Positions 2,943 through 33,338 of a stretch of DNA of 37,848 nt are shown here, piece by piece. The notes beneath the pieces are model-generated. The model had not been told where the DNA came from and made no database searches. It saw only the letters and a list, made by a program, of their open reading frames with translations. A program made the translations under genes and the position numbers. The DNA lies in assembly GCA_016926155.1 (NCBI GenBank), contig JAFGPC010000106.1:1-37848 (forward strand), written 5' to 3'. This stretch comes from Sedimentisphaerales bacterium. GTDB taxonomy: Bacteria > Planctomycetota > Phycisphaerae > Sedimentisphaerales > Anaerohalosphaeraceae. Each line of letters starts with the position of its first letter. Position 1 is the first letter of the stretch.

Positions 2943-3014
2943 AGCCGATGGCGGGATTTGAACCCGCAACCCCGGCTTTACGAAAGCCGTGCTCTACCGT
3001 TGAGCTACATCGGC
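2943..3014 (-). tRNA. tRNA-Thr (anticodon CGU)
   Basis: Minus-strand read GCCGATGTAGCTCAACGGTAGAGCACGGCTTTCGTAAAGCCGGGGTTGCGGGTTCAAATCCCGCCATCGGCT. It has a 7-bp acceptor stem GCCGATG/CATCGGC, T-arm GCGGG-TTCAAAT-CCCGC and anticodon stem CGGCT/AGCCG. The loop TTCGTAA gives anticodon CGT. Discriminator is U. CCA is not encoded. Confidence 0.85.
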
Positions 3015-3257: not shown

Positions 3258-6200
3258 TTAAGGTCCCATATTCGCCAAAGAACGAATTTCTGCCGGAGTT
3301 AAAGGGAAGTTATAGATTCTGACATCATCAATCAAACCATCAAAATAGTTGCTGTTATAAGTTCCTCCCCATCGTCCAATTGAAAGATCATCTGATAATT
3401 GATCGGGCAGTGAATCAATGTAATCACTGACAAGAGTTACAGCTTCGCCTTCAAAGTAGAAAATTGGTGTCTTTGTGTTACTGTCAAAAACAACTGCTAC
3501 ATGCTGCCAGGAACCGGTCTGTACGTTTATATTTCCAGTTCTTGCATAACCGTTATTGCCGTCTTTTTCTACATCAAGTCGCAACCACGTATTGTATGCA
3601 TTGTAATATTGCAGTGAAAACACAAATTCTTTGTCATTTCCGTCCTTGAGTTTGGTAACAAGTCCGTGGATGTCAGTAACTGTGTCCGGATTAATCCAAG
3701 CTGTGATTGTATAATCTCCTGCTCCGACACTAACTTCTTCACTATCGGATACGGCAATGTAATCATCGGTTCCATCCAGCTCAATAGCACCATACAATTG
3801 CCCTCCAGAGCTTTGCCAAGTGGCGCCATTCACAAGTGTACCATCGTTACCATCCAAACGATCAATTGCTGTCAATCCGGAAGTTTCATCCAACTGCCAG
3901 TGAGCCACGGGTTCATCCAGACCAAGGTCCCAGGGGCCCATACTTGCAAGATGTGAGATATCATCAGCAGTGAGTTCTCGATTGTAAATACGAATATCAT
4001 CCATCAAGCCATCAAAATATCGGGAATTATACGTTGCCGAGCCCCACCGACCAATATTTAACTCATCATCCAATTCATCAGGAAGTGTATCAATGGAATT
4101 ACTTGTTGTTTCAACAACCTGCCCATTATAGTAGAACACGGGTGTTTTACTTGTTGCATTAAACGTTACAGCGACATGCTGCCATTGCCCTGTAATGAAA
4201 TCGATGTTTTCTGATCGGGCGTACTGGTCGTTGCCATCTTTTTCCATGTCCAGCATTAGATAGGTGTCACTTGCTTTCAGGAGTGTAAAAGCAAATTCCT
4301 TGTCATTACCTCCATGGATTTTTACAAGCAATCCGTGATAACCTGTAATTGTATCAGGATTGATCCAGGCACAAAGAGTGTAATCGCCAGCTCCAACACT
4401 AATGGAATCATCATCCGAAACGGAAATATAATCATCCGAACCATCCAATTCAATTGCACCATTTAATTGCCCTTCGGAACTTTGCCAAGTCGGACCATTC
4501 TGAAGTGTACCATCATTATCATTGGAGGTTGAATCATAGGCCGTTCCACCTGTTTCTTCATCCATTTTCCATAGAGCTACCGGATCATCATATTCGTCAG
4601 CTCCAATATCAATGCGACTATTGATCTCACGTTGTAAATTATCGATGTCTGTCTGACCACCTGTACTTTCACTCGGATCACCTACATCAATACATGCTGA
4701 ATCGTATTCAATGTGATAATCCTTATTGGAAGCATCTGTAAACTTAGGGTCGGAGTTGATGTTGTTATTGCCGGTGGCGCTATACCCACCAAACTTTGTA
4801 CCGTTTAAAGCGCCATCGATATCACAATATGTGAAATACGGGTCGGAAGCATCATCAACAATATAGACTTCTCCACCGCTCGAGGACGTATTATCCCAGA
4901 AAATGCTGTTTCTGATGACTGCATCACAGTCACTTTCGAACCGTATTCCTCCACCATTGGTATCAGAACTATTGTCCGTAAACGTACATCCAATAACATT
5001 CGGATCAGCTTCACTATAGCAGTTCATCCCACCACCATAATCGGCGTAGTTACTCACAATCATGCAATTACGAATGGTCGGATTGGAACCACTATCACGA
5101 ACATAGACGCCACCACCCTTATCATCTGTTTTATTATCATAGATCCAGCAATTTTGAACCAGTGGACTTGAATTCTCTCGAATATAGACACCGCCGCCGT
5201 CTTGTGTAATCGCATGATTGTAATAGATATCACATTCTTCAATGGTCGCGTGACTACTGTAGGCACAATGAATCCCGCCGCCATACTCGGCATCGTTGTC
5301 CCGGACCACACACCCATTGATCGTCGCATCGCTGTTGGTTCGGCAATATATACCTCCACCCTTGTCCCCAGCCGTATTGTTAATAATCTCGCATTCCAGG
5401 ATAATAGCATCGCTGTTGTTATAGCAATAGATCCCTCCGCCATCATCTTCGGCCAGATTTCCCGCTATCACACAATGTCGGATCGTCGGGTTGCTCCCGT
5501 TACAATAAATACCACCTCCGTCTCGATCAGGGGACGTTCCAGGCGCCTTACCGTTGGTCAGTGTCATCCCGGCAAGAATGCTGCAGGGATCTTCACTGTC
5601 ATCGAATGACACTACCCGGCCGAGATCCTGGGCATCGATCACAGTCGCATCGATTACTTCCCAGTCGGTCTCCATACTCCCCTGAAGAGTTATGGCTTTT
5701 CCTCCAAAGTCGATACCCTCTTCATAGACACCAGGAAAAACTTCAATTTCATCAAGACTATTGGCGTCGCTGATCGCTTCTCCAATGCTACCAAACCAGT
5801 TAGACCAGGTTTTGTTGACAACGGTCTTTGTGTGAACTGTGGGATGATCCAGAATGGCAGCATATACCGTTATGTCTACATCACTCAAAGTTGCGCTGTT
5901 CCAATTATAAAGGTTGCTTGCGTCAGTCCGTAAGGGATTATGTGCGTATAAATCTCCTCCCACATCATACAAGTAACTAACTGTCCCACTGTATTCGATA
6001 GCAGTCCGATCATAATAGTCAAGCACCTGACAGTTATCGATTTCAATCCCGCCTGGATAGTCAAGTGTCCGATCTCCAATAGGATTTCCCTGGATATCTA
6101 TAGCACGACCGCTGCTTGCAGTGTTTTTGAACAAACAGTTTTTGAAAGTAACAGGGGGAGCTTTATCCGACTTATTGTAAAGACGTGCTCCATACTCAAC

Positions 6201-7226
6201 GTTTTCAACAAGAACATTCTCAAACCAGATTCCTTCATTGGGATCCGAAACATAATTGGGATCATCATAAGCGTAAGATACATTCAAGCCACGTCCTTCA
6301 CCGTTTCCTGTAATATAACAGTCCTGGACAATGACTCGGATCTCCTCTTCGACAAAATCCGACCATTTTGTCAAGCCGATTACTAAACCCTCTCTGCCAT
6401 TATTCTCAAATATGCAATTTGTAATATTTACATTCCAAAGACTGTCACCACTTATAATCTCGGGTTCAATATCAATCCCAGCTTTAGGTAGTGTTCCCAC
6501 GGTATTTTTGAAGACACATCCTTCAATGGTCGTATTTTTAGCACTTTGTATACTCATACCGTTTCTACGGTTGTTATCACAAACTACATCGCGGATGATG
6601 ATATCTGAATTGTATCGAGGATCACTAACTTGATTAGAAGAATTATCATCCCAGTCAGGAAAAACCCACCCAAGATATATACCATCACCTCCACTTTCGC
6701 CTAGTGTCAATCCATAAATACCGATATCACTGCATCCTGCAAAACGAAGCACATGACGAGACTCACCGGTCGTACAGCCAGTGATACGGCACGTTGCTCC
6801 GTATCCCCAGAAGTCAATTCCTTGGCACATTATGGCATGGAATAACGGATTAAAATTATTCTCATCGATAAAATCTCCTTGACCTGCCTGCCCCTGAACT
6901 ACAGTATCAGGATCAAAGATCAAGACTATGTTATTCTTTTTCGATTTGACCTGACTGTCTGAAAGTTCACGATAAAATGTGATCGTATTGGTAACTGTAT
7001 ATGTTCCCTCTTCGATGATGATTGTGTTGGGATCGCTAGGATTTTCTTGTGGATCGGATACTCCCGCCACAAAGATAGCCTTTTGTATCGTTGCAAACGG
7101 CTGGCTTTCTGTTCCGGGATCTCCATCATCCCCATCCGTTGCGACATAGTATGTGATGCCCCCCCATGTTGTACTACATACCAATAGAATCAAAATTACC
7201 CATTGCCCTGTTTTCCATAACTTCAT
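3258..7226 (-). CDS. giant secreted protein: signal peptide + right-handed parallel beta-helix (about 9 GGGIYC-type PbH1 repeats) + two tandem LamG (ConA-like lectin) domains
   Basis: 1322 aa. N-terminal signal peptide MKLWKTGQWVILILLVCSTTWG. About 22-aa periodic repeats ...D.GGGIYC..S.ATI..C.I..N.A... occupy nt ~4860-5600. Two C-terminal ~220-aa LamG-like repeats carry WINPD, IGRWG and FDGL(I/M)DD(V/I)RIYN motifs. AGGAG lies 9 nt before the ATG. The gene has its own terminator. Confidence 0.85.
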   Translation of the reverse strand: MKLWKTGQWVILILLVCSTTWGGITYYVATDGDDGDPGTESQPFATIQKAIFVAGVSDPQENPSDPNTIIIEEGTYTVTNTITFYRELSDSQVKSKKNNIVLIFDPDTVVQGQAGQGDFIDENNFNPLFHAIMCQGIDFWGYGATCRITGCTTGESRHVLRFAGCSDIGIYGLTLGESGGDGIYLGWVFPDWDDNSSNQVSDPRYNSDIIIRDVVCDNNRRNGMSIQSAKNTTIEGCVFKNTVGTLPKAGIDIEPEIISGDSLWNVNITNCIFENNGREGLVIGLTKWSDFVEEEIRVIVQDCYITGNGEGRGLNVSYAYDDPNYVSDPNEGIWFENVLVENVEYGARLYNKSDKAPPVTFKNCLFKNTASSGRAIDIQGNPIGDRTLDYPGGIEIDNCQVLDYYDRTAIEYSGTVSYLYDVGGDLYAHNPLRTDASNLYNWNSATLSDVDITVYAAILDHPTVHTKTVVNKTWSNWFGSIGEAISDANSLDEIEVFPGVYEEGIDFGGKAITLQGSMETDWEVIDATVIDAQDLGRVVSFDDSEDPCSILAGMTLTNGKAPGTSPDRDGGGIYCNGSNPTIRHCVIAGNLAEDDGGGIYCYNNSDAIILECEIINNTAGDKGGGIYCRTNSDATINGCVVRDNDAEYGGGIHCAYSSHATIEECDIYYNHAITQDGGGVYIRENSSPLVQNCWIYDNKTDDKGGGVYVRDSGSNPTIRNCMIVSNYADYGGGMNCYSEADPNVIGCTFTDNSSDTNGGGIRFESDCDAVIRNSIFWDNTSSSGGEVYIVDDASDPYFTYCDIDGALNGTKFGGYSATGNNNINSDPKFTDASNKDYHIEYDSACIDVGDPSESTGGQTDIDNLQREINSRIDIGADEYDDPVALWKMDEETGGTAYDSTSNDNDGTLQNGPTWQSSEGQLNGAIELDGSDDYISVSDDDSISVGAGDYTLCAWINPDTITGYHGLLVKIHGGNDKEFAFTLLKASDTYLMLDMEKDGNDQYARSENIDFITGQWQHVAVTFNATSKTPVFYYNGQVVETTSNSIDTLPDELDDELNIGRWGSATYNSRYFDGLMDDIRIYNRELTADDISHLASMGPWDLGLDEPVAHWQLDETSGLTAIDRLDGNDGTLVNGATWQSSGGQLYGAIELDGTDDYIAVSDSEEVSVGAGDYTITAWINPDTVTDIHGLVTKLKDGNDKEFVFSLQYYNAYNTWLRLDVEKDGNNGYARTGNINVQTGSWQHVAVVFDSNTKTPIFYFEGEAVTLVSDYIDSLPDQLSDDLSIGRWGGTYNSNYFDGLIDDVRIYNFPLTPAEIRSLANMGP
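3261..4590 (-). repeat. intragenic tandem duplication: two diverged LamG-domain coding repeats (~660 bp each, ~55% aa identity)
   Basis: The protein segments PVALWKMDEE...RIYNRELTADDISHLASMGP and PVAHWQLDET...RIYNFPLTPAEIRSLANMGP align end to end. The similarity is visible at DNA level (e.g. catcaatcaaaccatcaaaatag at 3322-3344 / catccatcaagccatcaaaatat at 3997-4019). Confidence 0.6.
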
Positions 7227-7839: not shown

Positions 7840-9948
7840 ATGAGTCTGGAAAGCTTCTTCACCCCCCGATCGGTTGCTATTGTTGGGGCATCACGGACCA
7901 AGGGCAAGGTTGGCTACGAAGTAGTCTCGGCCATGTTACGGGCCGGGTATGAGGGAAAACTGTTTGCCGTCAATCCTTCCACCGATGAAGTCCAGGGTCT
8001 CAAATGTTATCCGGACCTTAAGAGTATCGGTGAATCCCCGGAACTGGTTGTGGTGGTCGTAGCTGCCAAGCATGTCAAATCCGTGATCCAGGATTGTGCC
8101 GATCTTCGGGTCAAAGCGGCTATTATCATCTCTTCCGGCTTCAAGGAGGCCGGATCGCAGGGAGCCCAGCTCGAGCAGGAAATCGTTCGCATCGCCCGCT
8201 CGGCGGGAATGCGGATTATCGGACCCAACTGCATTGGGGTGATGTGTCCAACCAGCAAGCTCAATGCCAGTTTCGGCGGCCAATTGCCTAAGGCTGGGAA
8301 AGTGGGTTATTTTTCTCAATCCGGCTCGATTCTGGCCGCCATGGTGGATATGGCCGGAGCGACCGACATTGGATTCAGTAAGCTGGTCAGCATCGGAAAT
8401 AAGGCCGATGTCAATGAAATGGATGTGATGCGGGCCCTGGGAGAAGATGACAACACCAAAGTGATTGCCGGTTATCTGGAAACCATCAGCGACGGGGACG
8501 CTTTTATACGTCAGGCCGAGCGAATCAGTCGTATCAAGCCCATCCTTCTGCTTAAATCCGGAGTTACCGAGGCCGGCGCTCGTGCTGCAACATCCCATAC
8601 GGGTCGGCTGGCCGAATCGGAAAATGCTTATGAATGTGTGTTTGAGCGAGCCGGTGTAGTTCGCTGCCCTTCGATTAAAGCCCAGTTTGACTATGCCCGT
8701 GCCTTTGCCTACGATCCGGTACCCACCGGGCCTCGTGTAGCTGTAATTGCCAATGCCGGCGGTGCCGGAATCATGGCTACCGATGCCATCGAGAGAGAGG
8801 GTCTAAAACTGGCAAGCTTTACCGAGCAAACCCTTCAGAAACTCTGTAACGCCAAAGAACTGGCCGGAGTGGCTAATGTCGACAATCCCATTGATTTACT
8901 GGGGGATGCCCTGGCCAACCGTTATGAATTTGCCTTGCATGCAGCACTCGACGATCCGAACGTAGACACTGTATTGGTATTATTGAGCCCCCACGCCATG
9001 ACTGAGGTTCTGGAGACGGCCAAGGCGGTAGTCCGTGTTGCCAAGGAAAAGGATGAAAAACCCGTTCTGACCTGTTTTTTGGGGGCTTCAAGGATCTATG
9101 AGGCCAGCGAAATCTTGCGAAAGGGGCGAATTCCTCAATATGACTCTCCGGAAAGCGCTGTCGGCACCATCAAGGTAATGGCTCACTATTCCCAATGGAG
9201 GTCCCGGCCCAAGCGGGTTGTCAAGCTGTTCAGCGTCAATCGTCACAAGGCCGAGCGGATTATCGAGCGGCGACTGCGACAAAACGTACTGGAACTCGGA
9301 GAGGCTGAAACCAAAGAGATTCTGGAAGCGTATGGCTTTGTCACTCCGCGTGGTGAGATTGCTACAACTGTCGAGCAGGCCGTCAATATTGCCAACTATA
9401 TTGGTTATCCGGTCGTCTTGAAGATCTGGTCTCCCGATATCATTCACAAGACAGATATCGGTGGTGTAAAAACGGATTTGCGGACCGATCAGGAAGTGAT
9501 GGATGCTTTCGATTTGATGATGTACCGTATTCCGAAGAAGGCTCCTGACGCCGATATCATCGGTATCAGTGTCGAAGAGATGGTTGACAAGGGACGCGAG
9601 GTGATTCTGGGGATGAATCGTGATCCTCGATTTGGACCATTGATGATGTTTGGAATGGGCGGAAGATTGGTGGAAGTATTGGAAGATGTGGTGTTTTATC
9701 CCGCACCTCTGACGGCTGCCGAGGCCAAGGAAATGCTGGTTCGAACCAAAACATACGACCTTCTAAGCGGTGCCCGGGGTGAGGAAGGGGTGGATATCGA
9801 TGTGATCGCCGAGGGCCTCCAGCGGCTCAGCCAACTTGTGACCGAGTTTCCGCAAATCAAAGAAATCGATATTAATCCTTACGTCGTCGGACGGGAGGGA
9901 ACCACTCCCATCGCCGTTGACGCCATGATGACATTGGAAAAGGCATAA
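7840..9948 (+). CDS. acetyl-CoA synthetase (ADP-forming), fused alpha/beta (NDP-forming acyl-CoA synthetase family)
   Basis: About 703 aa. The N-terminal CoA-binding Rossmann motif is SVAIVGAS...GYEV. It has succinyl-CoA-synthetase-like ligase-CoA domains and a C-terminal ATP-grasp (VVLKIWSPDIIHKTDIGGVK). Likely ATG at 7840, with GAGG 5 nt upstream. The ORF track starts at GTG 7834. Confidence 0.8.
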   Translation: MSLESFFTPRSVAIVGASRTKGKVGYEVVSAMLRAGYEGKLFAVNPSTDEVQGLKCYPDLKSIGESPELVVVVVAAKHVKSVIQDCADLRVKAAIIISSGFKEAGSQGAQLEQEIVRIARSAGMRIIGPNCIGVMCPTSKLNASFGGQLPKAGKVGYFSQSGSILAAMVDMAGATDIGFSKLVSIGNKADVNEMDVMRALGEDDNTKVIAGYLETISDGDAFIRQAERISRIKPILLLKSGVTEAGARAATSHTGRLAESENAYECVFERAGVVRCPSIKAQFDYARAFAYDPVPTGPRVAVIANAGGAGIMATDAIEREGLKLASFTEQTLQKLCNAKELAGVANVDNPIDLLGDALANRYEFALHAALDDPNVDTVLVLLSPHAMTEVLETAKAVVRVAKEKDEKPVLTCFLGASRIYEASEILRKGRIPQYDSPESAVGTIKVMAHYSQWRSRPKRVVKLFSVNRHKAERIIERRLRQNVLELGEAETKEILEAYGFVTPRGEIATTVEQAVNIANYIGYPVVLKIWSPDIIHKTDIGGVKTDLRTDQEVMDAFDLMMYRIPKKAPDADIIGISVEEMVDKGREVILGMNRDPRFGPLMMFGMGGRLVEVLEDVVFYPAPLTAAEAKEMLVRTKTYDLLSGARGEEGVDIDVIAEGLQRLSQLVTEFPQIKEIDINPYVVGREGTTPIAVDAMMTLEKA

Positions 9949-10016
9949 AAAAAACCGATATGCTCCCGGCGGTAGAATGATTTTTCTTCTGCTGGTTGTT
10001 CATGGAGGGCACAGAT

Positions 10017-11888
10017 ATGCATGAATTTGATTGGAAAGACAAATATAAAGAGCTGATCGGTACGGCACCGGAAGCGATGAGGCGGATTAAGCCGGGAGAC
10101 AGTATCTTCATCGGTACCGGGTGCGGACAACCGCAGCATTTGGTCGATTCGCTGGTCAAACATGGCGGACATATCTACGATGCGCATGTGGTGCACTTGT
10201 TAACGATGGGCGCTGCACCGTATGCCCGGCAGGAGTTTCGCGAAAAATTCAAGATGAACACTTTTTTCGTTGCGGAAAACGTGCGTGATGCCCTGGAACA
10301 GGGCATTGGCGATTACACGCCGGTTTTTTTAAGCAATATCCCGCAACTGTTCGAAACCGGCCGGGTAACGATCGATGTGGCGATGATTACCGTTACGCCG
10401 CCGGATATCAATGGGCTCTGTAGCCTTGGCGTATCGGTGGACATTGTAAAATCAGCCGCCGCGAACGCCAAATTCGTCATTGCACAGGTTAATACCGGAA
10501 TGCCGCGAACCCTGGGGAATTGCTTTCTACATGTGAATTCTATTGATATGCTGGTGCCTTATGATGAGCCGATTATTATGGTTGAGCCGCCCACGACCAA
10601 TGACGTGCTTCGAAAAATCGGACAGAATCTGGCCCGGCTGGTCGAGGACGGCAGCACGATCGAGTGTGGCATTGGGAGAATTCCTCAGGCGATGGCTGAG
10701 TATCTCCATGATAAAAAGGAACTTGGCGTACATACCGAGATGTTCGGAGACTGGATCATTGAATTGATCGAATGCGGCGCGGTTACCTGTTCCAAAAAGA
10801 CAATCAACAACGGCAAGATCGTTGCCAGTTTTTGCATGGGTTCCCAGGCCTTGTATGACTACATTGATAATAATCCGTTGTTCGAATTCCATCCGACTGA
10901 GTATGTCAATGATCCGTTTATCATCGCCCAGCACGATAAAATGGTGGGCATCAATGTCGGTCTGGAGATCGATTTAACCGGTCAGGTTTGTGCCGATTCA
11001 CTGGGCTATCGTTTCTATAGCGGCATTGGCGGCCAGGTCGATTTTATTCGAGGCTGTGCGCGAAGCAGGGGAGGCAAACCCATCATTGCAATGCCTTCCA
11101 CGGCCAAAGGTGACACAATTAGCCGAATCGTGCCAAGGTTGACTGAAGGGGCGGGCGTGGTGACGACACGGGGAGATGTGCATTATGTCGTTACCGAATA
11201 CGGAATTGCCTACCTGCACGGAAAGAGCATTCGCGAGCGTGTACTGTCTTTGATTAACATTGCTCACCCCAAGTTCCGCAAGGAGTTAATCCAGGCTGCC
11301 AAGGCACAGCGTTATATCCAACCCGATCAGATCGAACTGGAATGGGATAAGGTCCACTACCCCGAGGAATTGGAACGATACGAAACACTGCGGGACGGTA
11401 CGGAAATTTTCTTTCGTCCCGTCAAGCCCACCGATGAAGCGGCCCTGTCGGAAATGCTGTATTCGCTTTCTCGTGAATCGGTGAAGAGGCGATACTTTAC
11501 GCACACCAAGACCTTTCCGCACAAGGATGTCCAGAAGCTGACCAATGTGGATTATGAACAGAACCTGGCGATTGTCGGAGTGGTTCCGGGAGCGGCGTAT
11601 GGAGAGGAAATCGTGGCGATTGCGCAATACTTCCTCGATCCAAAGACGCAGGTGGCCGAGGTGGCATTTATCGTGCAGGATGAATGGCAGGATAAGGGCA
11701 TGGGAAGCTACTTACTGGACTATATTACGGACATCGCCAAGAGCCGGGGTGTCAAACGGTTCTATGCCACAGTTTTGCCGATGAATCGGGCAATGCTGCA
11801 AATCTTCTACAACAGCGGTTACTCGGTCAATACGGAGTTTGACGGTGAAGCGTATTCGATCACATATGGCCTGGACAGAAAATCCTGA
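10017..11888 (+). CDS. bifunctional acetyl-CoA hydrolase/transferase family domain fused to C-terminal GNAT acetyltransferase domain
   Basis: N-terminal ~480 aa match the acetyl-CoA hydrolase/CoA-transferase family (Ach1/Cat1/ScpC-like): GDSIFIGTGCGQPQHL, GSQALYDYIDNNP, MPSTAKGDTISRIVP. C-terminal ~150 aa form a GNAT fold (VAFIVQDEWQDKGMGSYLLDYI...). Likely ATG at 10017, with GGAGGG 7 nt upstream. The track starts at TTG 9996. Confidence 0.8.
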   Translation: MHEFDWKDKYKELIGTAPEAMRRIKPGDSIFIGTGCGQPQHLVDSLVKHGGHIYDAHVVHLLTMGAAPYARQEFREKFKMNTFFVAENVRDALEQGIGDYTPVFLSNIPQLFETGRVTIDVAMITVTPPDINGLCSLGVSVDIVKSAAANAKFVIAQVNTGMPRTLGNCFLHVNSIDMLVPYDEPIIMVEPPTTNDVLRKIGQNLARLVEDGSTIECGIGRIPQAMAEYLHDKKELGVHTEMFGDWIIELIECGAVTCSKKTINNGKIVASFCMGSQALYDYIDNNPLFEFHPTEYVNDPFIIAQHDKMVGINVGLEIDLTGQVCADSLGYRFYSGIGGQVDFIRGCARSRGGKPIIAMPSTAKGDTISRIVPRLTEGAGVVTTRGDVHYVVTEYGIAYLHGKSIRERVLSLINIAHPKFRKELIQAAKAQRYIQPDQIELEWDKVHYPEELERYETLRDGTEIFFRPVKPTDEAALSEMLYSLSRESVKRRYFTHTKTFPHKDVQKLTNVDYEQNLAIVGVVPGAAYGEEIVAIAQYFLDPKTQVAEVAFIVQDEWQDKGMGSYLLDYITDIAKSRGVKRFYATVLPMNRAMLQIFYNSGYSVNTEFDGEAYSITYGLDRKS

Positions 11889-11994
11889 ACGATTTTTTTC
11901 TGGCGTTGCGCGGCTATTAACGATTGTCTGGTTACTCAATTTTTTGTTGATAGCTATGGCGGGATGCAATATGACAAATGAGAATAGGCAAAAA

Positions 11995-12771
11995 ATGAGC
12001 CGACCGACAAAAGGCAAATCAATTCGTGTGGCCATGTGTCAGATTTTCTGTCTCTCCGGCGATCGATCGGGTAATTTTATCCGCATTGAAAATGCCCTGC
12101 AGGATGCTGCCCGGGCCGGGGCGCAAATCGCCTGTTTTCCCGAAACATCGATTCTCGGCTGGGTTTATAGTGATGCCCATCAACGTGCATATCCTATACC
12201 CGGACAAGACTCCGATCGTCTTTGTGCCCTGGCGAAACAATATAAGCTCTATATATGTATTGGCCTGGCGGAGAAAAACGGTGTCAACCTGCACGATTCG
12301 GCCATTTTGATCGATCCGGCAGGAAACCTTCTACTCAAACATCAGAAAATGAATATTCTAACGGAGTTGATGAATCCCCCTTATACTCCGGGCGGCCAGG
12401 TTGCATCTGTCGATACCGAACTGGGACGAATCGGGCTGCTGATTTGTGCGGACACCTTTCGGACGGATGTACTGGACGCCATGGCCGAACAAAAACCCGA
12501 TCTGGTACTTGTACCCTATGGTTGGGCGGCCCCCGAAGAAAACTGGCCAGAGCATGGAAAAGAACTTCATTCTGTTGTACAATCAGCAGCTCGAAGAATC
12601 GGCGTCCCGGTCATCGGGGTAGATCTGGTTGGGCAGATTACCCGCGGACCGTGGCGGGATCGGGTATACGGGGGGCAAAGTATTATGATCGATGCATCGG
12701 GGTGCGTCCTGGCTGTGGCTGTGGATCGTGACCGCGATATTGTTGTTGCGGATGTGCCGATAAAAGATTAA
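11995..12771 (+). CDS. carbon-nitrogen hydrolase family amidase (nitrilase superfamily; N-carbamoylputrescine-amidase-like)
   Basis: IRVAMCQIF...ACFPETS places the catalytic Glu in context. LLICAD is the catalytic Cys motif. The start is ambiguous. ATG 11995 (MSRPTKGKSIRVAM) gives a typical cytoplasmic CN-hydrolase N-terminus. The longer track ORF (11839) overlaps the upstream gene and adds a hydrophobic, lipobox-like LIAMAGC segment. Confidence 0.7.
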   Translation: MSRPTKGKSIRVAMCQIFCLSGDRSGNFIRIENALQDAARAGAQIACFPETSILGWVYSDAHQRAYPIPGQDSDRLCALAKQYKLYICIGLAEKNGVNLHDSAILIDPAGNLLLKHQKMNILTELMNPPYTPGGQVASVDTELGRIGLLICADTFRTDVLDAMAEQKPDLVLVPYGWAAPEENWPEHGKELHSVVQSAARRIGVPVIGVDLVGQITRGPWRDRVYGGQSIMIDASGCVLAVAVDRDRDIVVADVPIKD

Positions 12772-12853
12772 TTTGGGCAAAGAATTTTGGGGTACATCGG
12801 AAACTTTCATTGTATTGTGTTTCCGACTTCAAGATGCAGGAGAAAGAGGAATT

Positions 12854-14116
12854 ATGAAGACAATTAATCGTCGAGCTTTTATAAAGACCGCTGTCGCAGG
12901 AGGAATCCTGGGAGCAGCAGGGCCGACCCGTTCGGCGTTCGGTTTGGGATACCCGATTGGAGATAAGAGTAAAGAGGATATCGGTTCGTCAATCGAGGCA
13001 CTTCTTCAGGGAAAAAGCGATGCCAAGATTAAGAGCATAGAAAGTTTCACGGATAAAGAGGCGAACAATCTTAGCTTTGTCCGTGTCGTGACCGAGGATG
13101 GGACCGAGGGATGGGGGCAGATGGCTCCGTTCAACGCCGATATTTCTGCAATCGTCCTGCATCGAAATGTTGCCCCGCTTGTGATTGGAAAAGATCCCTA
13201 TGATTTTGGAGGCATTTCCGATCTAGTCCGGGATCGCAATCTCAAATACCCCTGGTCTTATGTGTGCCGTGCGTTGTCCGGTCTGGATACGGCCTTGTGG
13301 GACCTCCGGGGAAAACAAGAAAACAAGAGTATTTGTGAACTGCTGGGTGGTACTCCTGGCGCAATACCTGTGTATGGTTCCAGTATGAGCCGCAAGATAA
13401 CAGCCGAGGAAGAAGCGCGTCGGATGGTGGCTTTGCGGGAAAGCCATGGATTTCGTGCATTCAAAATCCGTATTGGCTCCGAGGCCGGCCACAATCAGGA
13501 TGCCTGGCCCGGCCGGACCGAAGAGATTGTCCCGACCGTGCGAAAGGCACTGGGCGAGGATGTCGGCCTGATGGTCGACGCCAATAGTTGCTATACTATC
13601 GAAAAAGCCATTGAAGTGGGCAAGATGCTTGAAAAGAACAAGGTTATCCATTTTGAGGAACCTTGCCCCTATTGGGAGTTCGAATGGGCTTCCAAGGTCA
13701 ACAAGGCCCTGAAAGTGCCAGTCACCGGCGGTGAGCAGAATAACGATCCGGCCCAGTGGCAGCGGATCCTAAACGCCAAGGCCTATGATATCATTCAGCC
13801 GGACGTGTGTTATCTGGGGGGATTGACGCGAACATTACGTGTCGTGGCGATGGCACACAAAGCCAAGGTGCCCGTTGTGCCGCACTCTGCAAACTTATCA
13901 CTGGTGACCGTATTTGCCCTGCATCTGATGGGTGCAATCCCCAATGCCGGACCGCATGTGGAATATACGATTGAGAGCAACCCCTGGACGCGCGAGTTGT
14001 ATCAGCCGGTGCTCAAGGTACGGGACGGAAAAGTCGCCGTTCCCAACAATCCGGGCTGGGGCGTGGTCCTGAACAAGACCTGGCTGGAAAACGCCCAGCA
14101 CCAGATCACAGCATAG
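12854..14116 (+). CDS. Tat-signal enolase-superfamily enzyme (mandelate racemase / muconate lactonizing enzyme family dehydratase)
   Basis: Twin-arginine motif NRRAFIKTAVAGG directly after Met at 12854, with a GAAAGAGGA RBS. MR/MLE signatures present: KIRIG, MVDANSCYT, IHFEEP, TGGEQ, IIQPDVCYLGG. Confidence 0.8.
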   Translation: MKTINRRAFIKTAVAGGILGAAGPTRSAFGLGYPIGDKSKEDIGSSIEALLQGKSDAKIKSIESFTDKEANNLSFVRVVTEDGTEGWGQMAPFNADISAIVLHRNVAPLVIGKDPYDFGGISDLVRDRNLKYPWSYVCRALSGLDTALWDLRGKQENKSICELLGGTPGAIPVYGSSMSRKITAEEEARRMVALRESHGFRAFKIRIGSEAGHNQDAWPGRTEEIVPTVRKALGEDVGLMVDANSCYTIEKAIEVGKMLEKNKVIHFEEPCPYWEFEWASKVNKALKVPVTGGEQNNDPAQWQRILNAKAYDIIQPDVCYLGGLTRTLRVVAMAHKAKVPVVPHSANLSLVTVFALHLMGAIPNAGPHVEYTIESNPWTRELYQPVLKVRDGKVAVPNNPGWGVVLNKTWLENAQHQITA

Positions 14117-14136
14117 CCAAAAGTATTTGAAATCTG

Positions 14137-15267
14137 ATGACACAAAAAGCATTTATATATAGTCCTGAACTTGAGGCGTATCCGTATCCGCCCTCATGTC
14201 CTTTTAATACCTCGCGAGCTGGTAAGGCGCGTGCGATACTGACCTCAATGGGACTGTTGATCGGGGATGATAAAATAGAAGTTGCGCCTCCTCCCGCTAC
14301 AAGGGAGGTCTTGGAAACATTCCATACGCCGGAATATCTGGATGCTTTGGAACGATTGAATCGGGGCGAGTATGATTCGGAAATGCTTTACTTTGGCCTG
14401 GGTACGGGCGATTGTCCGGCCTTCAAAGGAGTATGGGACTATTCGGTCCTGGCCTGTGGGGCGTCCGTGCTGGGGGCCGAATGGATTGTGCAGGGAAAGG
14501 CTTCAGTAGCGTTTAATCCATCCGGCGGGCTGCATCACGCCTTTCCGGATCGAGCGGCGGGATTCTGTTATCTCAACGATGTCGTTCTTGGCTGCGAGAC
14601 GCTGGCCAAAGGAAACAAACGAGTCGTTTTTCTCGATATCGATGTGCATCATACGGACGGCGTACAGGCAGCCTTCTATGATCGAAACGATGTGATGACC
14701 ATCTCACTACATCAGGATGGCCGGACACTCTTTCCCGGTACCGGATTTGTAGAAGAAATCGGTGAGGGGGAAGGGAAAGGATATGCCATCAATATTCCTT
14801 TACCGATGGGCACGTATGATGAAGCCTATCTGCGGGCGGTTCGCCAGGTTGTGCTTCCCTTGATTCATGCGTTCGGGCCGGATGTCCTTGCTCTGGAGAT
14901 CGGGGCAGATACCCTATCCGGCGATCCACTGGCAAACCTGAGCCTGACCAACAACGTAATCGCCGATGTCATCGGCCTTCTGCGGGCCTTTGGAAAGCCG
15001 ATCCTTGCCACGGGTGGTGGGGGCTACCATGTCGATAATACGGCCCGGGCATGGGCTCTGGCTTGGACGGCCTTGTGCGGGGAAGATGCCGGCGCTGATG
15101 CGGCGGCTGGATTAGGCGGAGTGATGCTTGAAACGGCAGACTGGCATGGGGGATTGCGAGATCGCGTACTGGCTCCCAGCGAAGCCCAGAAATGCAGCGT
15201 CGATCAAATTCTGAATATCACACTGGACAGTGTTAAAAAGCTGGTTTTTCCCCACCATGGGCTGTAA
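14137..15267 (+). CDS. acuC: AcuC-type deacetylase (histone deacetylase / acetoin utilization protein family; arginase-deacetylase fold)
   Basis: 376 aa. FIYSP...PFN, GGLHHAFPDRAAGFCYLNDVV and LDIDVHHTDGVQAAFYDRNDVMTISLHQDGRTLFPGTGFVEEIGEGEGKGYAINIPL align closely with B. subtilis AcuC. Confidence 0.85.
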   Translation: MTQKAFIYSPELEAYPYPPSCPFNTSRAGKARAILTSMGLLIGDDKIEVAPPPATREVLETFHTPEYLDALERLNRGEYDSEMLYFGLGTGDCPAFKGVWDYSVLACGASVLGAEWIVQGKASVAFNPSGGLHHAFPDRAAGFCYLNDVVLGCETLAKGNKRVVFLDIDVHHTDGVQAAFYDRNDVMTISLHQDGRTLFPGTGFVEEIGEGEGKGYAINIPLPMGTYDEAYLRAVRQVVLPLIHAFGPDVLALEIGADTLSGDPLANLSLTNNVIADVIGLLRAFGKPILATGGGGYHVDNTARAWALAWTALCGEDAGADAAAGLGGVMLETADWHGGLRDRVLAPSEAQKCSVDQILNITLDSVKKLVFPHHGL

Positions 15268-15272
15268 AAAAA

Positions 15273-15306
15273 GAGCGATCCGGAAACTGAAGTTTCCGGA
15301 TCGCTC
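15273..15306. terminator. perfect 15-bp stem / 4-nt loop hairpin between convergent operons; a strong intrinsic terminator for the minus-strand MFS-acs operon, possibly bidirectional
   Basis: GAGCGATCCGGAAAC-TGAA-GTTTCCGGATCGCTC. On the plus strand it is preceded by AAAAAAA (15265-15272), which reads as a T7 tract after the stem on the minus strand. It lies 93 nt after the MFS stop and 6 nt after the acuC stop. Confidence 0.6.
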
Positions 15307-15398
15307 GTCATTGCCTCCAACTTCGACACAATTGTCGTTCCTCACGATCCAACGACTTCCCTGTCATTCGAACCGTGCTTTCCCCTAAGCTGGATTTA

Positions 15399-16748
15399 CT
15401 ATTGCTCTTCCTTGGCTTGTGCATTTAATTCCGGCTGAGGATTTATTGGTTGTACGGCGATACCCGTTGTGTGAAGGGGTCTTAATCCCATTGAAATAAC
15501 GGCCGCCACAAGGCAGGCGATGCCACAAGGGATAAACGCCCACATCCACAATTGCTTATCGCCCATAATGCCGCCAAGAATCGGACCGACCACACCGCCG
15601 ACACCATAAGCCATAAAGACCCATGGATAATTGGTTCCAACATTTTTATTGCCGAAATAATCGGCTGTGGCAGCCGGAAAGAGAGCAAAGTTTCCACCAA
15701 AATTGAAACCAATAATCGCGGCTCCGATATATAAACCGATTTCATTGCCACCGATGAAGTAGAAAACAATCATCATAATGCCCTGCGCGGCGCTCATGAG
15801 GATAATAGCATTCTTTCGGCCGGTTTTGTCCGAGATGGCACCCCATGCAATACGGCCTATGCCGTTAAGCAGGGCATAAAACAAGCCCATTGCGGTTCCG
15901 GCAATGGTTTTTGCAGCCGCTTCTTCGATGCCCCCCTGAGTCAGAGATTCTACACCGAACAAACGGATAATTCCAATGACCATCAATCCTGCCATGCCAC
16001 CTGCCGTAAAGGTCAAGAACAGAATCCAGAATTGCGGAGTTCTTACCATCTCTTTTTCGGTGAGATTAATGCCTCCTGTGCTTGCGGCATGGGCTGCCTC
16101 CGGAGGAACCCACCCTTTTGGCTGCCAGCCATCCGGTGGATTGACCATAAACATAGCCCCAAGAATAACCAGGATGGCAAAGAGAATCCCGTACAAGATA
16201 AAGACTTTGCTGATAGTCCAGCCCATTCCGTATAGACCTTCCCAGCCTGGAGTCAGATTGACGGGACCAAATTTAAAACCGCCGGTCAGTTTGATCCAGA
16301 TCAGGGCTCCAAAACCAAAGCCTGCAACGGCCAGCCCGGTGATAAGGCCCTTCTTATCCGGGAACCATTTGACCAGGGCCGCAATCGGGCATACATATCC
16401 CAAGCCGATTCCGGCTCCTCCGAGGATGCCGACACCAATCAGGATGCCCCAGAAGTTATATCCGGACAAGCCGGCTAGAACATAGCCTAGTCCAAGAACA
16501 AGACCCCCTGTTATGGCAACCTTTTTAGGGCCGACTTTCTTCTGCCACTTACCGGCAATCAAAGCCATAACCACCGCAAACGTCAGCAAGCCGACAGAAA
16601 AAATGACTTGTGTATGCCATTTTTCATAACCGGCTTCGGTCAATTTGTTTGTAAACGCCGACCAGGCATAGATGGCGCCAAGACAGAGCTGGATGAGAAT
16701 ACCGCCGACAACCACGAGCCATCGGTTCATGACCTTTTGTTCCGACAT
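15399..16748 (-). CDS. MFS transporter, oxalate/formate antiporter (OFA)-like family; probable monocarboxylate (acetate?) transporter
   Basis: 449 aa, about 12 predicted TM segments. The N-terminus RWLVVVGGILIQLCLGAIYAWSAF is typical of the OFA family. It sits 74 nt downstream of acs in the same orientation. Confidence 0.8.
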   Translation of the reverse strand: MSEQKVMNRWLVVVGGILIQLCLGAIYAWSAFTNKLTEAGYEKWHTQVIFSVGLLTFAVVMALIAGKWQKKVGPKKVAITGGLVLGLGYVLAGLSGYNFWGILIGVGILGGAGIGLGYVCPIAALVKWFPDKKGLITGLAVAGFGFGALIWIKLTGGFKFGPVNLTPGWEGLYGMGWTISKVFILYGILFAILVILGAMFMVNPPDGWQPKGWVPPEAAHAASTGGINLTEKEMVRTPQFWILFLTFTAGGMAGLMVIGIIRLFGVESLTQGGIEEAAAKTIAGTAMGLFYALLNGIGRIAWGAISDKTGRKNAIILMSAAQGIMMIVFYFIGGNEIGLYIGAAIIGFNFGGNFALFPAATADYFGNKNVGTNYPWVFMAYGVGGVVGPILGGIMGDKQLWMWAFIPCGIACLVAAVISMGLRPLHTTGIAVQPINPQPELNAQAKEEQ

Positions 16749-16822
16749 GATCGATTCCTTTCAAGAAAACAGGCCGGACGCAAATAGAATGCGTCCGGCC
16801 GGATTGTGATTGGACCGGTTGT

Positions 16823-18802
16823 TTATCCGCGGCCTGCGATGAGCTTCTCGACGACACTCGGATCGGCCAGCGTGGTGATATCGCCCAGGTTGCCTGTATC
16901 CTTCTCGGCAATCTTGCGCAAGATTCGACGCATGATCTTGCCCGAACGAGTCTTGGGCAGCGACGGAGCAAACTGAATCGCTTCCGGAGCGGCGATCGGG
17001 CCAATTTCCTTACGGACGTGCATGATCAATTCTTTCTTGAGAGCATCGCTTTCCTCGACGCCATCGACCAGAGTGACATAGGCATACAGACCCTGTCCCT
17101 TGATCTCGTGCGGGATCGGTGTGACAGCGGCCTCGGCGACCTTGGCATGGCTGACCAGGGCACTTTCCACCTCAGCGGTTCCGATACGGTGACCGGAGAC
17201 ATTGACTACATCGTCAATCCGACCCATCAGCCAATGATCGCCGTCTTCGTCGACCCGGCAACCGTCACCCGTGAAATACATGTTGTCGAACATCGTGAAA
17301 TACGTGTCGATAAAACGGTCATGATCGCCCCACATCGTACGCATCATACCGGGCCAGGGTTTGCGGATACACAGCTTGCCGCCTTCATTGACATTACATA
17401 CCGAAGCATCATCCCGCAGCACTATGGTGTCTACTCCGAAGAACTGCTTACAGGCGCTTCCGGGCTTAAGCGTATGGGCGCCCGGCAACGGAGTGACTAA
17501 GATCCCGCCGGTTTCGGTCTGCCACCATGTATCCACGATCGGGCATTTGCTGTGTCCGACCTTTTCATAGTACCATATCCAGGCTTCGGGATTGATTGGC
17601 TCGCCCACCGTGCCCAAAATCCGCAGGGAATCGAGCTTGTACTTGGTTACCCACTCGTCACCCAGACGCATCAGGGCGCGAATCGCCGTGGGAGCCGTAT
17701 AGAAAACGGTGACCTTGAACTTGTCGCAAATATGCCAGAAGCGTCCGGCATCCGGATAGGTCGGGACGCCTTCGAACATCAGACTTGTGGCGCCGTTGGC
17801 CAATGGGCCGTAAACGATATAGCTATGTCCTGTCACCCAGCCGATATCGGCAGTGCACCAGTAGATATCATCGTCGTGAATATTAAAAATATGCTTGTGC
17901 GACAGCGAGGTATGCATCAGGTAGCCGGCTGTGGTGTGGACCACGCCCTTGGGCTTTCCTGTCGAGCCGGAGGTGTACAGGATGAACAGCGGATCTTCGG
18001 CGTTCATATGCTCGGGTTCGCAGTCGGCGCTGGCCTTGGCCATCTCGTCATGATACCAGAAATCCCGACCGTCTATCATATCGCAGGGTTCAGTGTTGAC
18101 CTTCGTCACGATGACGCTTTCGATGGTCGGGCAATCGGCCAGGGCCTCGTCGGCGATCTTTTTGAGAAGGATGTGCTTGCCGGCCCGAAGAGACACGTTG
18201 GAGGTAATCAGCATCTTACAATCGGAATCGTTGACACGGCCCTTGATCGCGTCGGCGCTGAAACCGCCAAAAATGATCGAATGAATCGCTCCGATTCGAG
18301 TGCAGGCCATCATCACAATAGCCAGTTCGGGTACCATTGGCATATAAATAGCCACGCGGTCGCCCTTGCGGATGCCCTTGCCCTTGAGCACATTGGCAAA
18401 TTTGCAGACCTCTGTGTGCATTTCTTTATAGGTAAACTTCTTAACCGCATCCTCGGCCTCACCCTGCCAGAGGATGGCGACCTTGTTCTCAATAGGAGTG
18501 CCCAGATGACGATCCAGACAGTTGTACGAAACGTTCAGCTCACCATCGGCAAACCAGGTATGTTCGATCTTCCGGGCCTTGGTGTCCCAGGTATATTCCA
18601 GACTCTTGGTTGGTTCCTTGAACCAGGTCAGCGTCTTGGCCTGTTCCAGCCAGAAAGCATCCGGGTCGTTGATCGACTTTTCCCACATTTCCTTGTACTG
18701 CTGCTCGCTGTTAATCCAGGCATTCGACTGCACGTTGGTAGGCGGGGGAAACTTACGGCCTTCAACCATGAGCGATTGCATTCCTTTGTTTTGTTCTGCC
18801 AT
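16823..18802 (-). CDS. acs: acetyl-CoA synthetase (AMP-forming)
   Basis: 659 aa. Canonical Acs N-terminus (NSEQQYKEMWEKSINDPDAFW) and AMP-binding motif YTSGSTGKPKG. The conserved acetylatable Lys sits in the PKTRSGKIMRR context. GAGGTG lies 8 nt before the ATG. Confidence 0.92.
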   Translation of the reverse strand: MAEQNKGMQSLMVEGRKFPPPTNVQSNAWINSEQQYKEMWEKSINDPDAFWLEQAKTLTWFKEPTKSLEYTWDTKARKIEHTWFADGELNVSYNCLDRHLGTPIENKVAILWQGEAEDAVKKFTYKEMHTEVCKFANVLKGKGIRKGDRVAIYMPMVPELAIVMMACTRIGAIHSIIFGGFSADAIKGRVNDSDCKMLITSNVSLRAGKHILLKKIADEALADCPTIESVIVTKVNTEPCDMIDGRDFWYHDEMAKASADCEPEHMNAEDPLFILYTSGSTGKPKGVVHTTAGYLMHTSLSHKHIFNIHDDDIYWCTADIGWVTGHSYIVYGPLANGATSLMFEGVPTYPDAGRFWHICDKFKVTVFYTAPTAIRALMRLGDEWVTKYKLDSLRILGTVGEPINPEAWIWYYEKVGHSKCPIVDTWWQTETGGILVTPLPGAHTLKPGSACKQFFGVDTIVLRDDASVCNVNEGGKLCIRKPWPGMMRTMWGDHDRFIDTYFTMFDNMYFTGDGCRVDEDGDHWLMGRIDDVVNVSGHRIGTAEVESALVSHAKVAEAAVTPIPHEIKGQGLYAYVTLVDGVEESDALKKELIMHVRKEIGPIAAPEAIQFAPSLPKTRSGKIMRRILRKIAEKDTGNLGDITTLADPSVVEKLIAGRG

Positions 18803-32557: not shown

Positions 32558-33241
32558 ATGGGTCTTTTCAGACGTCTTCACAGAATCACCATGGGTCGGA
32601 TCGAGGCCTTTTTAGACCGCGCCGAAGATCCGGAAATCATCTTCCCCATCCTGTTGGAGGAGATGGAAAAACAGCTTCGGGCGGCAACCGAAGCCGAAGC
32701 CAAGGCCGCCGCATCGCTCAAGCAGGCACAGCGTGAGTTAAAAGGTCACCAGACCAAGGTGGAACGATTTAGTCAGGGGGCTGCGCTGGCCTTGAAAAAG
32801 AACGACGAACAGACGGCTCGGATGTCTATCGAAGCGCAGATCGATGCCGAGAAAATGGCTTCAGTCGCCCAGCAGAATGTCGACATGGCAACCGATTCTC
32901 TCGATCATGCTGCTGCCGCTCGTAAACGGATTCAACAGCAGCTCGATGAATTACAAGCCAAGAAAGATGAACTGCTCACCAGAGCGCGTGTGGCTAAAAC
33001 GCAACAAAAGATACAACGGACGGTCAGCGGCTCGGCCGGCAGCACTGACAGTATTCTTGATGCCGTAGCTCGCCTGGAAACCGGTGTCGAAGAAGCCGAA
33101 GCCCAGCTTGAGATTCAATCGCACCTGGCGGGCGAAGGTTCCGGCAACGGCACGCTGGAACGCAAGCTCAGTGAGCTGGTACACGACAGCGAAATCGAGA
33201 AGCGGATGGAACAGCTTCGTAAACAAATCTCGCAAACATAA
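32558..33241 (+). CDS. pspA: PspA/IM30 family protein (phage-shock protein A / Vipp1-like), paralog 1
   Basis: 227 aa, all predicted coiled coil. The N-terminus MGLFRRL...AFLDRAEDPEIIFPILLEEMEKQL matches the PspA MGIFSRF...LLEKAEDPQKL...IQEMED pattern. Confidence 0.85.
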   Translation: MGLFRRLHRITMGRIEAFLDRAEDPEIIFPILLEEMEKQLRAATEAEAKAAASLKQAQRELKGHQTKVERFSQGAALALKKNDEQTARMSIEAQIDAEKMASVAQQNVDMATDSLDHAAAARKRIQQQLDELQAKKDELLTRARVAKTQQKIQRTVSGSAGSTDSILDAVARLETGVEEAEAQLEIQSHLAGEGSGNGTLERKLSELVHDSEIEKRMEQLRKQISQT

Positions 33242-33264
33242 CAGGATTCCGGTATACTTTGTGT

Positions 33265-33293
33265 CCGGTCGGGCTCAGGAGGGGCTCGGCCGG
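33265..33293 (+). other. intercistronic RNA hairpin between the two pspA paralogs (12-bp stem incl. 3 G-U, loop AGGAG), weak U-tract
   Basis: CCGGTCGGGCTC-aggag-GGGCTCGGCCGG followed by ATTTCTT. It could act as a partial terminator or attenuator. Confidence 0.3.
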
Positions 33294-33338
33294 ATTTCTT
33301 AAATAGTCCGGTTATGTGCCGGGACAGGAGTGATAGTC

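Follow-up and report, generated by a model that had tools for sequence, protein, structure and literature searches.

The reversible acetylation of acetyl-CoA synthetase (Acs) is the textbook case of prokaryotic metabolic control by lysine acetylation. The accepted acetyltransferases carry an ADP-forming synthetase-like, cAMP-binding, ACT or NADP-binding domain, or none of these, and come mostly from Proteobacteria, Firmicutes and Actinobacteria. In Pat, the domain resembling an ADP-forming acyl/acetyl-CoA synthetase (ACD) is inactive and lacks the catalytic His (PMC8556138), while in the acuABC system of Bacillus subtilis AcuB is an AMP-sensing inhibitor of the deacetylase AcuC (PMC13121692). 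A CoA-transferase is not among the regulatory domains listed in classifications of lysine acetyltransferases (KATs; PMC8556138, PMC11254643, PMC12184503). Here we describe a locus of a Sedimentisphaerales bacterium (Planctomycetota; assembly GCA_016926155.1, contig JAFGPC010000106.1) in which a GNAT domain is fused to a CoA-transferase (CoAT) and is encoded beside an ACD, a deacetylase and Acs. The window is the whole stretch of DNA analyzed, 37,848 nucleotides (nt) long, and the gene for the fusion protein, CoAT::GNAT, lies on the + strand at 10017-11888.

We read the conserved core of this locus as a reversible lysine-acetylation module at the acetate/acetyl-CoA node that would switch Acs off and on, and we place the probability of this reading at roughly 55%. 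An earlier note, made from the sequence alone, had proposed an alternative modular route to acetyl-CoA-sensing acetylation of Acs. The Pat-type character of the GNAT, the target lysine of Acs, the AcuC type of the deacetylase and the synteny all favor that proposal, but two of its parts did not survive, namely a functional unit of five genes and an ACD detached from Pat. No description of a CoA-transferase-GNAT fusion was found in the openly accessible full-text literature, including PMC8556138, PMC11254643, PMC12184503 and PMC11255334, and in public annotations such proteins go by nothing more specific than 'GNAT family N-acetyltransferase', the label of P0001, whose sequence is 100% identical to the fusion of the window, or 'acyl-CoA hydrolase'. 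The fusion is widespread, and it is apparently an undescribed kind of protein-acetylating enzyme.

Domains of the fusion protein

The 623-amino-acid (aa) fusion protein comprises a family I CoA-transferase at aa 1-~435, a linker, and a GNAT domain at aa ~448-623, as delimited by Pfam and NCBIfam matches and by alignments. The N-terminal part matches AcetylCoA_hydro and AcetylCoA_hyd_C (E 1e-67, Pfam), and no inactive ACD-like regulatory domain is found in the chain. Against the solved structures 9vag, 3eh7 and 3gk7 this part scores E values of 1e-131 to 1e-116, and across 420 aa it is ~50% identical to 4-hydroxybutyrate CoA-transferases of known structure. Glu241, in the motif HTEM, aligns at the nucleophile position with E238 of 3gk7, which we take to be the residue number of the AbfT nucleophile, and the oxyanion motif GIGGQVDF is kept. 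A conserved Glu serves as the nucleophile of family I CoA-transferases (PMC3180442). In the window's subfamily, the CoA-transferase domain is probably also a working enzyme. No NCBIfam model assigns it a substrate at equivalog level, the best being butyryl-CoA:acetate CoA-transferase with 280 bits against a cutoff of 675.

The GNAT domain resembles protein acetyltransferases throughout. Its top NCBIfam match is the mycobacterial Pat model (1e-24), and its eight best PDB matches are all Pat-type lysine acetyltransferases, including PatZ (9it0, 1e-22), S. lividans PatA (SlPat; 4nxy, 3e-21) and MtPat (4ava, 2e-11); the first GNAT of another type follows at only 2e-4. The alignment to Escherichia coli PatZ (27% identity, E 3e-29) spans PatZ residues 710-883, which is the full Pat GNAT, and takes in the segment YPxxLE...FRP.P.DE that precedes the GNAT fold. 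Glu548, in the motif VAEVAF, aligns with E809 of PatZ and is invariant in two family alignments; E809 is the catalytic residue of PatZ (PMC12184503). AcuA did not appear among matches to the GNAT domain, either in the PDB at E<0.01 or in NCBIfam. These comparisons, together with the architectures of the nearest relatives, support a Pat-type protein lysine acetyltransferase domain rather than a small-molecule GNAT, as the earlier note had supposed.

Architectures and catalytic residues of the family

A HMMER search with the GNAT domain across 1.8 billion cluster representatives returned 12,318 matches at E<1e-3. Among the best 150 relatives, 68 have the CoAT-GNAT architecture and 64 are GNAT domains alone or fragments, while the two Pat layouts are represented by eight GNAT-ACD (type II) and four ACD-GNAT (type I) proteins. 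The best 150 also include other architectures, such as receiver domain (REC)-GNAT and Fe-S+CoAT+GNAT proteins. Two proteins of ~960 aa (P0166 and P0184) carry an N-terminal 4Fe-4S dicluster region ahead of the CoA-transferase and GNAT. In two shorter ones of ~340-360 aa (P0193 and P0266), a response-regulator receiver domain is joined to the GNAT.

One further relative, P0241, extends the fusion to a deacetylase. A single open reading frame (ORF) of 1013 aa on a 22.9-kb contig (L086, 8001-11042) encodes CoAT, GNAT and an AcuC-type member of the histone deacetylase (HDAC) family, in that order. This predicted fusion of writer and eraser directly links both activities. In its CoA-transferase part the nucleophile Glu is replaced by Asp (HTD for HTE), and the GGQ motif is missing.

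A census of catalytic residues shows how the two domains of the fusion differ in constancy. All 75 members of the window's subfamily that were counted have the CoA-transferase Glu, the GG[QH] motif and the GNAT acid (E or D). The divergent CoAT-GNAT representatives of full length number 33; of these, 16 have the Glu, only seven have both Glu and GG[QH], and all 33 keep the GNAT acid, so that this acid is E or D in 108/108 family members checked. CoA-transferase catalysis can thus be lost but the GNAT acid never is, and the CoA-transferase domain therefore behaves as one would expect of a regulatory domain, with the GNAT as the constant output. The loss of the Glu parallels the loss of the catalytic His from the ACD-like domain of Pat (PMC8556138). 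In a neighbor-joining tree of GNAT domains, which has no support values and a query-biased sampling, the type I and type II Pat domains fall between two CoAT-GNAT groups, a placement that is only suggestive.

Distribution and conserved neighborhood

Full-length relatives of the fusion are encoded in at least 598 species genomes from more than 25 bacterial and archaeal phyla, in a scan that took one genome per species. The bacterial carriers among the best 80 loci belong to Planctomycetota, Chloroflexota, Acidobacteriota, Lentisphaerota, Kiritimatiellia and Fibrobacterota, and further ones are Desulfobulbaceae, Smithellaceae, Myxococcota, Spirochaetota, Nitrospirota and many candidate phyla. 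Thermoplasmatota, Thorarchaeota, Methanolliviera and Woesearchaeota are the archaeal carriers. Two of the loci come from metagenome-assembled genomes (MAGs) labelled Desulfobulbus propionicus (L063) and Chthonomonas calidirosea (L049). Cultured carriers of the fusion thus appear to exist, and experiments appear feasible.

Neighbors were counted with tblastn searches of the window's proteins in the best 80 loci (46-82% identity); these loci are species representatives and are not phylogenetically independent. The most constant partner is ACD, found in 47/80 loci. In 33 of them its gene immediately precedes the fusion gene in the same orientation, usually by 20-60 nt, and in 11 it lies downstream. 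An HDAC-family gene is present in 25/80, Acs in 14/80 and the MFS transporter in 11/80, where it is usually paired with Acs. Among the 37 loci that extend at least 8 kb to both sides, at least one of ACD, HDAC and Acs is present in 25; by a rough estimate, a given single-copy gene would fall in such a stretch by chance in ~1% of cases. The gene order of the window, which the earlier note had offered for comparison, is therefore not peculiar to it, and the neighborhood ACD - CoAT::GNAT - HDAC - MFS/Acs recurs across many phyla. In some of the related loci acs is divergent from the module.

The deacetylases near the fusion are of two kinds. Twelve of the 25 are AcuC-type (NPSGG[FLY]HHA and GGGGY), adjoin the fusion gene and are 45-62% identical to the deacetylase of the window; in close relatives the deacetylase often starts 30-40 nt past the stop codon of the fusion gene. 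The other 13 belong to a different, LEGGY-type family, and because this family is also found with the fusion, two unrelated HDAC families have been recruited to one module. A gene for an AcuB-like protein with a CBS pair is present in 7/80 loci, in the order HDAC-CBS-ACD-fusion. All seven (L021, L034, L047, L051, L059, L063 and L065) are Desulfobulbaceae-type loci with a LEGGY-type HDAC of ~320 aa and a CBS-pair protein of ~220 aa, and the block lies ~6-10 kb into each of them. No CBS-domain protein or AcuB gene was detected in the window itself by the Pfam and window gene scans.

Some loci have further genes beside the module. Next to the ACD gene, 10 loci (L012, L039, L043, L050, L064, L071, L075, L076, L078 and L080), many of which are from archaea, encode a stand-alone PtaN-like protein of ~350 aa with AAA_26 and DRTGG domains, which may be an extra regulator of the acetyl-CoA/acetate node. 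In a Thorarchaeota MAG, two CoAT::GNAT genes stand in tandem next to MFS and Acs genes (L067, 8648-12431).

The synthetases and the deacetylase of the window

The gene for the AMP-forming Acs lies on the - strand at 16823-18802 and matches TIGR02188 with 982 bits against a cutoff of 725. The earlier note had made its proposal depend on an intact target lysine, and in a proper alignment Lys622 falls on K609 of Salmonella enterica Acs, within an identical PKTRSGKIMRRILRKIA stretch. The context of the lysine in the window is PKTRSGKIMRR. Furthermore, among the Acs-like genes linked to the fusion in other loci, PX4GK is present in 14/14 and PKTRSGKIMR in 13/14.

The deacetylase gene (14137-15267, + strand) encodes 376 aa with a Hist_deacetyl domain (E 3e-80). 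Its best PDB matches are RPD3, HDAC8, HDAC2 and Aquifex HDLP, at ~1e-64 to 1e-67. The protein carries NPSGGLHHA (SGGLHH) and GGGGY (GGGY), and the motifs XGGLHH and (G/A)GGY characterize cluster 2 of the family, which contains AcuC (PMC11532494). A Zn-dependent class I/AcuC-type lysine deacetylase is indicated on both counts, in keeping with the AcuC ortholog first proposed.

The ACD gene (7840-9948, + strand) encodes 702 aa. Its start is placed at the ATG at 7840, with a GAGGTG Shine-Dalgarno sequence just upstream, although the ORF itself opens with a GTG at 7834. The CoA_binding_2, Succ_CoA_lig, Ligase_CoA_2 and ATP-grasp_5 domains account for all five ACD subdomains in the fused alpha-beta order (Pfam, E down to 1e-77). 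The protein scores 519 bits with its best PDB match, the 4-hydroxybutyrate--CoA ligase [ADP-forming] 8wzu, 340 bits with the alpha subunit of Korarchaeum ckcACD1, and 309 bits with PatZ over aa 4-690. Its phospho-His (SHTG) aligns with H254 of ckcACD1 alpha and recurs in four ACDs encoded in related loci; in E. coli PatZ, by contrast, four residues are deleted at this position and the His is missing. The second His (IIHK, beta) is invariant. The ACD of the window keeps the phospho-His that is absent from PatZ; it is therefore probably a functional enzyme rather than a regulatory domain split off from Pat. A separate, apparently intact ADP-forming synthetase had been described before and is borne out by both His residues. 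The accompanying phrase that Pat had been 'split and re-fused' holds as a description only, the data giving no evolutionary direction, and its suggestion of a detached Pat piece is contradicted by the phospho-His.

No substrate is assigned to the ACD because every NCBIfam equivalog scores below its cutoff, AcCoA-syn-alpha with 536 bits against 567 and 4-hydroxybutyrate--CoA ligase with 623 against 1300. The best solved matches of the ACD and of the CoA-transferase are both 4-hydroxybutyrate enzymes, and since both proteins stay far below the equivalog cutoffs, no conclusion on substrate is drawn from this common label.

A proposed switch and its alternatives

In the mechanism that we favor, the writer would be the Pat-type GNAT, with a family I CoA-transferase as its N-terminal partner in place of the inactive ACD-like domain of Pat. 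From homology and proximity we infer that Acs is the substrate of the GNAT. When acyl-CoA/acetyl-CoA is plentiful, the GNAT would acetylate Lys622, the catalytic lysine of Acs, and shut off the ATP-costly activation of acetate. Under the same conditions, the co-transcribed ACD would run toward acetate and yield ATP, and the CoA-transferase would be able to activate acetate without ATP. Silencing of Acs would thereby prevent a futile cycle between Acs and ACD. The CoA-transferase domain may report the acyl-CoA/acid status to the GNAT by ligand binding, in analogy to the regulatory domain of PatZ, and here possibly by catalysis as well. The AcuC-type deacetylase would strip the acetyl group and reactivate Acs, and the MFS transporter would bring in acetate or another monocarboxylate.

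Several points weigh against this reading. Acs is linked to the fusion in far fewer loci than ACD (14/80 vs 47/80), and ACD or another protein could be the main or an additional target. Of the 37 loci that extend 8 kb or more in each direction, 12 have no ACD, HDAC or Acs gene nearby. In the window's subfamily the CoA-transferase appears to be fully catalytic, and its main role may be the enzymatic one. The apparent conservation could also be inflated if the block was passed on as a whole by horizontal transfer. Finally, the AlphaFold2 model of the fusion, built from a 55-sequence alignment with members 76-88% identical, is uninformative on the coupling of the domains: its mean predicted local distance difference test score (pLDDT) of 66.8, with aa 311-404 below 50, and its predicted template modeling score (pTM) of 0.53 are too poor to show how they pack.

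The alternative that survives best keeps the module and changes its target, with the GNAT mainly acetylating ACD, its own CoA-transferase domain or many proteins, and Acs an occasional neighbor. We consider this unlikely. ACD is the tightest neighbor of the fusion, in position as well as in frequency, and the two domains of Pat, ACD-like and GNAT, interact physically (PMC12184503). However, ACDs are not known to have an acetylation site or a PX4GK-like motif, and the characterized relatives of the GNAT clade (PatZ/SePat, SlPatA and MtPat) all acetylate AMP-forming acyl-CoA synthetases (PMC8556138, PMC12184503). The recognition motif is moreover perfect in the Acs genes linked to the fusion, which points back to Acs.

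Alternatively, the fusion might be a purely metabolic bifunctional enzyme. The CoA-transferase would then make a particular acyl-CoA with which the GNAT N-acylates an amino acid, an amine or another small molecule; the CoA ester would be recycled by the ACD, and the N-acyl product would be hydrolyzed by the HDAC-type enzyme. The invariance of both catalytic centers in the window's subfamily would fit such a role, as would the 4-hydroxybutyrate enzymes that head the solved matches of both the CoA-transferase and the ACD, and small-molecule substrates are known for some HDAC-family enzymes (PMC11532494). Nevertheless, the GNAT belongs to the Pat clade, and the motifs of the deacetylase are those of cluster 2/AcuC. 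Roughly half of the divergent relatives have lost the nucleophile but keep the GNAT, which makes obligatory substrate channeling unlikely, and Acs and an AcuB-like gene recur near the fusion gene. Taken together, these observations leave the metabolic role improbable. An acetylpolyamine/N-carbamoylputrescine catabolic operon, which the earlier note had raised for the AguB-like carbon-nitrogen hydrolase (CN-hydrolase) and the acetylpolyamine amidohydrolase (APAH)-like deacetylase, is very improbable, for although the two genes share an operon here and in the related locus L081, the hydrolase reaches only 52 bits with AguB (TIGR03381) against a cutoff of 410 and has weak, Nit-like PDB similarity (Nit2/PH0642), the deacetylase has cluster 2 motifs when bacterial polyamine deacetylases are reported in cluster 4 only (PMC11532494), and the 80 related loci lack the CN-hydrolase and enolase-family genes and have the HDAC directly after the fusion gene.

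Other genes of the window

All seven genes named in the earlier note are present at or near the coordinates given there, with very strong Pfam and NCBIfam domain matches. On the + strand the fusion gene is followed by a Nit-like CN-hydrolase (11965-12771, ~268 aa; Pfam CN_hydrolase E 1e-35) and by an enolase-superfamily protein of the mandelate racemase/muconate lactonizing enzyme (MR/MLE) type with a twin-arginine signal (12854-14116, 420 aa; MR_MLE_N and MR_MLE_C), and then by the deacetylase. The gaps between the five + strand genes are 20-80 nt, a spacing compatible with one operon. As a functional unit, which the earlier note took them to be, the five do not hold together: in the tblastn searches, the CN-hydrolase and enolase-family genes each had homologues at 0/80 related loci. 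The pair is common only to this genome and to its closest relative, L081 (88% identity). Because only this nearest relative has both genes, they are, judged by their distribution, a recent lineage-specific insertion, passengers outside the conserved module. Similarly, an AAA_21/AAA_15 ATPase gene sits between the ACD and fusion genes of L081 (8103-9365), so the operon tolerates insertions.

When the long ORF of the CN-hydrolase is read from 11839 or 11866, it includes a stretch that resembles a signal peptide and ends in AMAGC. A lipoprotein was considered and rejected, as L081 has stop codons just upstream of the 'MAG...' start and no such extension. The protein probably starts at the ATG at 11965 and is cytoplasmic. 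The enolase-family protein has the twin-arginine motif NRRAFIK (RRRFLG in its L081 counterpart), and its PDB matches 3t8q and 3tcs (459-438 bits) are both structural-genomics proteins of unknown function. An exported MR/MLE enzyme inside a cytoplasmic regulatory operon is odd.

The - strand genes acs and MFS converge on this row, with the MFS gene (15399-16748, 449 aa) between acs and the deacetylase gene. The transporter had been called a member of the OFA family. It scores 202 bits with the OFA subfamily model against a cutoff of 375, and 342.6 bits with NF049980 (SfMCT, L-lactate/monocarboxylate) against a cutoff of 320, the sole model above its cutoff, so an SfMCT-like monocarboxylate transporter fits better. 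A scan for terminators and inspection of the sequence itself reveal an intrinsic terminator hairpin with a 15-bp stem at 15273-15306 (- strand), which abuts the stop codon of the deacetylase gene and lies at the end of the MFS transcript. The hairpin that had been described as a shared terminator does exist, but its T-run is on the - strand only, which makes it a canonical terminator for MFS alone. The scan also found a terminator-like hairpin at 16772-16800 (- strand), between acs and the MFS gene.

Upstream signals were scarce. A promoter scan stayed at background level, with 17 sites against 14.7 expected, and gave no convincing promoter upstream of the operon. Rfam found one tRNA in the whole window and no riboswitch or leader in the 600 nt upstream of the ACD gene. 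The tRNA gene is at 2943-3014 (- strand).

Around the module are housekeeping genes (TrpRS/TyrRS-class, ScpA, AlaRS, HisD and aconitase). The window also encodes a separate GNAT of 163 aa (1589-2080, + strand), adjoining a QueG-like gene, and a tandem pair of PspA/IM30 genes (32558-34007, + strand). Two large proteins look secreted: the first (3258-7226, - strand; 1322 aa) combines a right-handed beta-helix with two LamG domains, and the second (30234-32171, + strand) has PKD and LamG domains; both are typical of polysaccharide-degrading Planctomycetota.

Comparison with known systems

A broader view, which we advance tentatively and at somewhat less than even odds, is that CoAT::GNAT represents an unrecognized lysine acetyltransferase architecture in more than 25 phyla, including Asgard archaea and Thermoplasmatota. 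Its CoA-transferase would act as a sensor, through a covalent enzyme-CoA state or the acyl-CoA/acid ratio, and would be catalytic in some lineages and a pseudoenzyme in others. With ACD, an HDAC of the AcuC-like or another type and, in some cases, an AcuB-like protein, it would make up a master switch of anaerobes between acetate formation that yields ATP and acetate activation that consumes it, and its gene arrangement may be ancestral to the ACD-fused Pat. If true, this would add a new and very widespread acetyltransferase type, mostly from uncultured anaerobes and archaea, in which the writer is tied physically to the opposing acetate/acetyl-CoA enzymes ACD and Acs. It would also offer a testable answer to how organisms with both ACD and Acs avoid a futile cycle. 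Intact and degenerate CoA-transferase domains within one family would provide a natural series from enzyme to regulatory domain.

The closest described system is Pat/PatZ of Salmonella and E. coli. The GNAT domains are homologous end to end with the catalytic Glu kept, the target motif in Acs is identical, and in both systems an acyl-CoA-binding partner domain is coupled to the GNAT. Also, over aa 4-690 the ACD of the window can be aligned to the regulatory domain of PatZ, with no difference in the order of subdomains. The two systems differ in the partner of the GNAT, which here is a family I CoA-transferase while the ACD is a separate gene with its phospho-His, and in the eraser, which in the window is a Zn-dependent AcuC-type enzyme instead of the sirtuin CobB.

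As in the acsA/acuABC system of B. subtilis, acs is clustered at this locus with genes for an acetyltransferase and for a deacetylase of the AcuC type (cluster 2). Seven related loci add an AcuB-like CBS gene, and acs is divergent in some, as in B. subtilis. Unlike the stand-alone AcuA type, however, the GNAT of the window is Pat-type and fused to a 440-aa CoA-transferase. In addition, ACD is the most constant partner, AcuB, a CBS-CBS-ACT protein, has no gene in the window, and acs is convergent here.

Among other acetyltransferases, the type III KATs, in which a cAMP-, ACT- or NADP-binding domain precedes a C-terminal GNAT (as in Mycobacterium tuberculosis Pat), share the layout of an N-terminal regulatory domain and a C-terminal GNAT, and in NCBIfam the fusion's GNAT matches the mycobacterial Pat model best. 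The AbfT family of CoA-transferases shares the ~50% identity over 420 aa noted above, the nucleophile Glu and GGQxDF. The fusion differs from AbfT in carrying a C-terminal GNAT, and from the type III KATs in that its N-terminal domain has an enzyme fold with catalytic residues intact in the window's subfamily.

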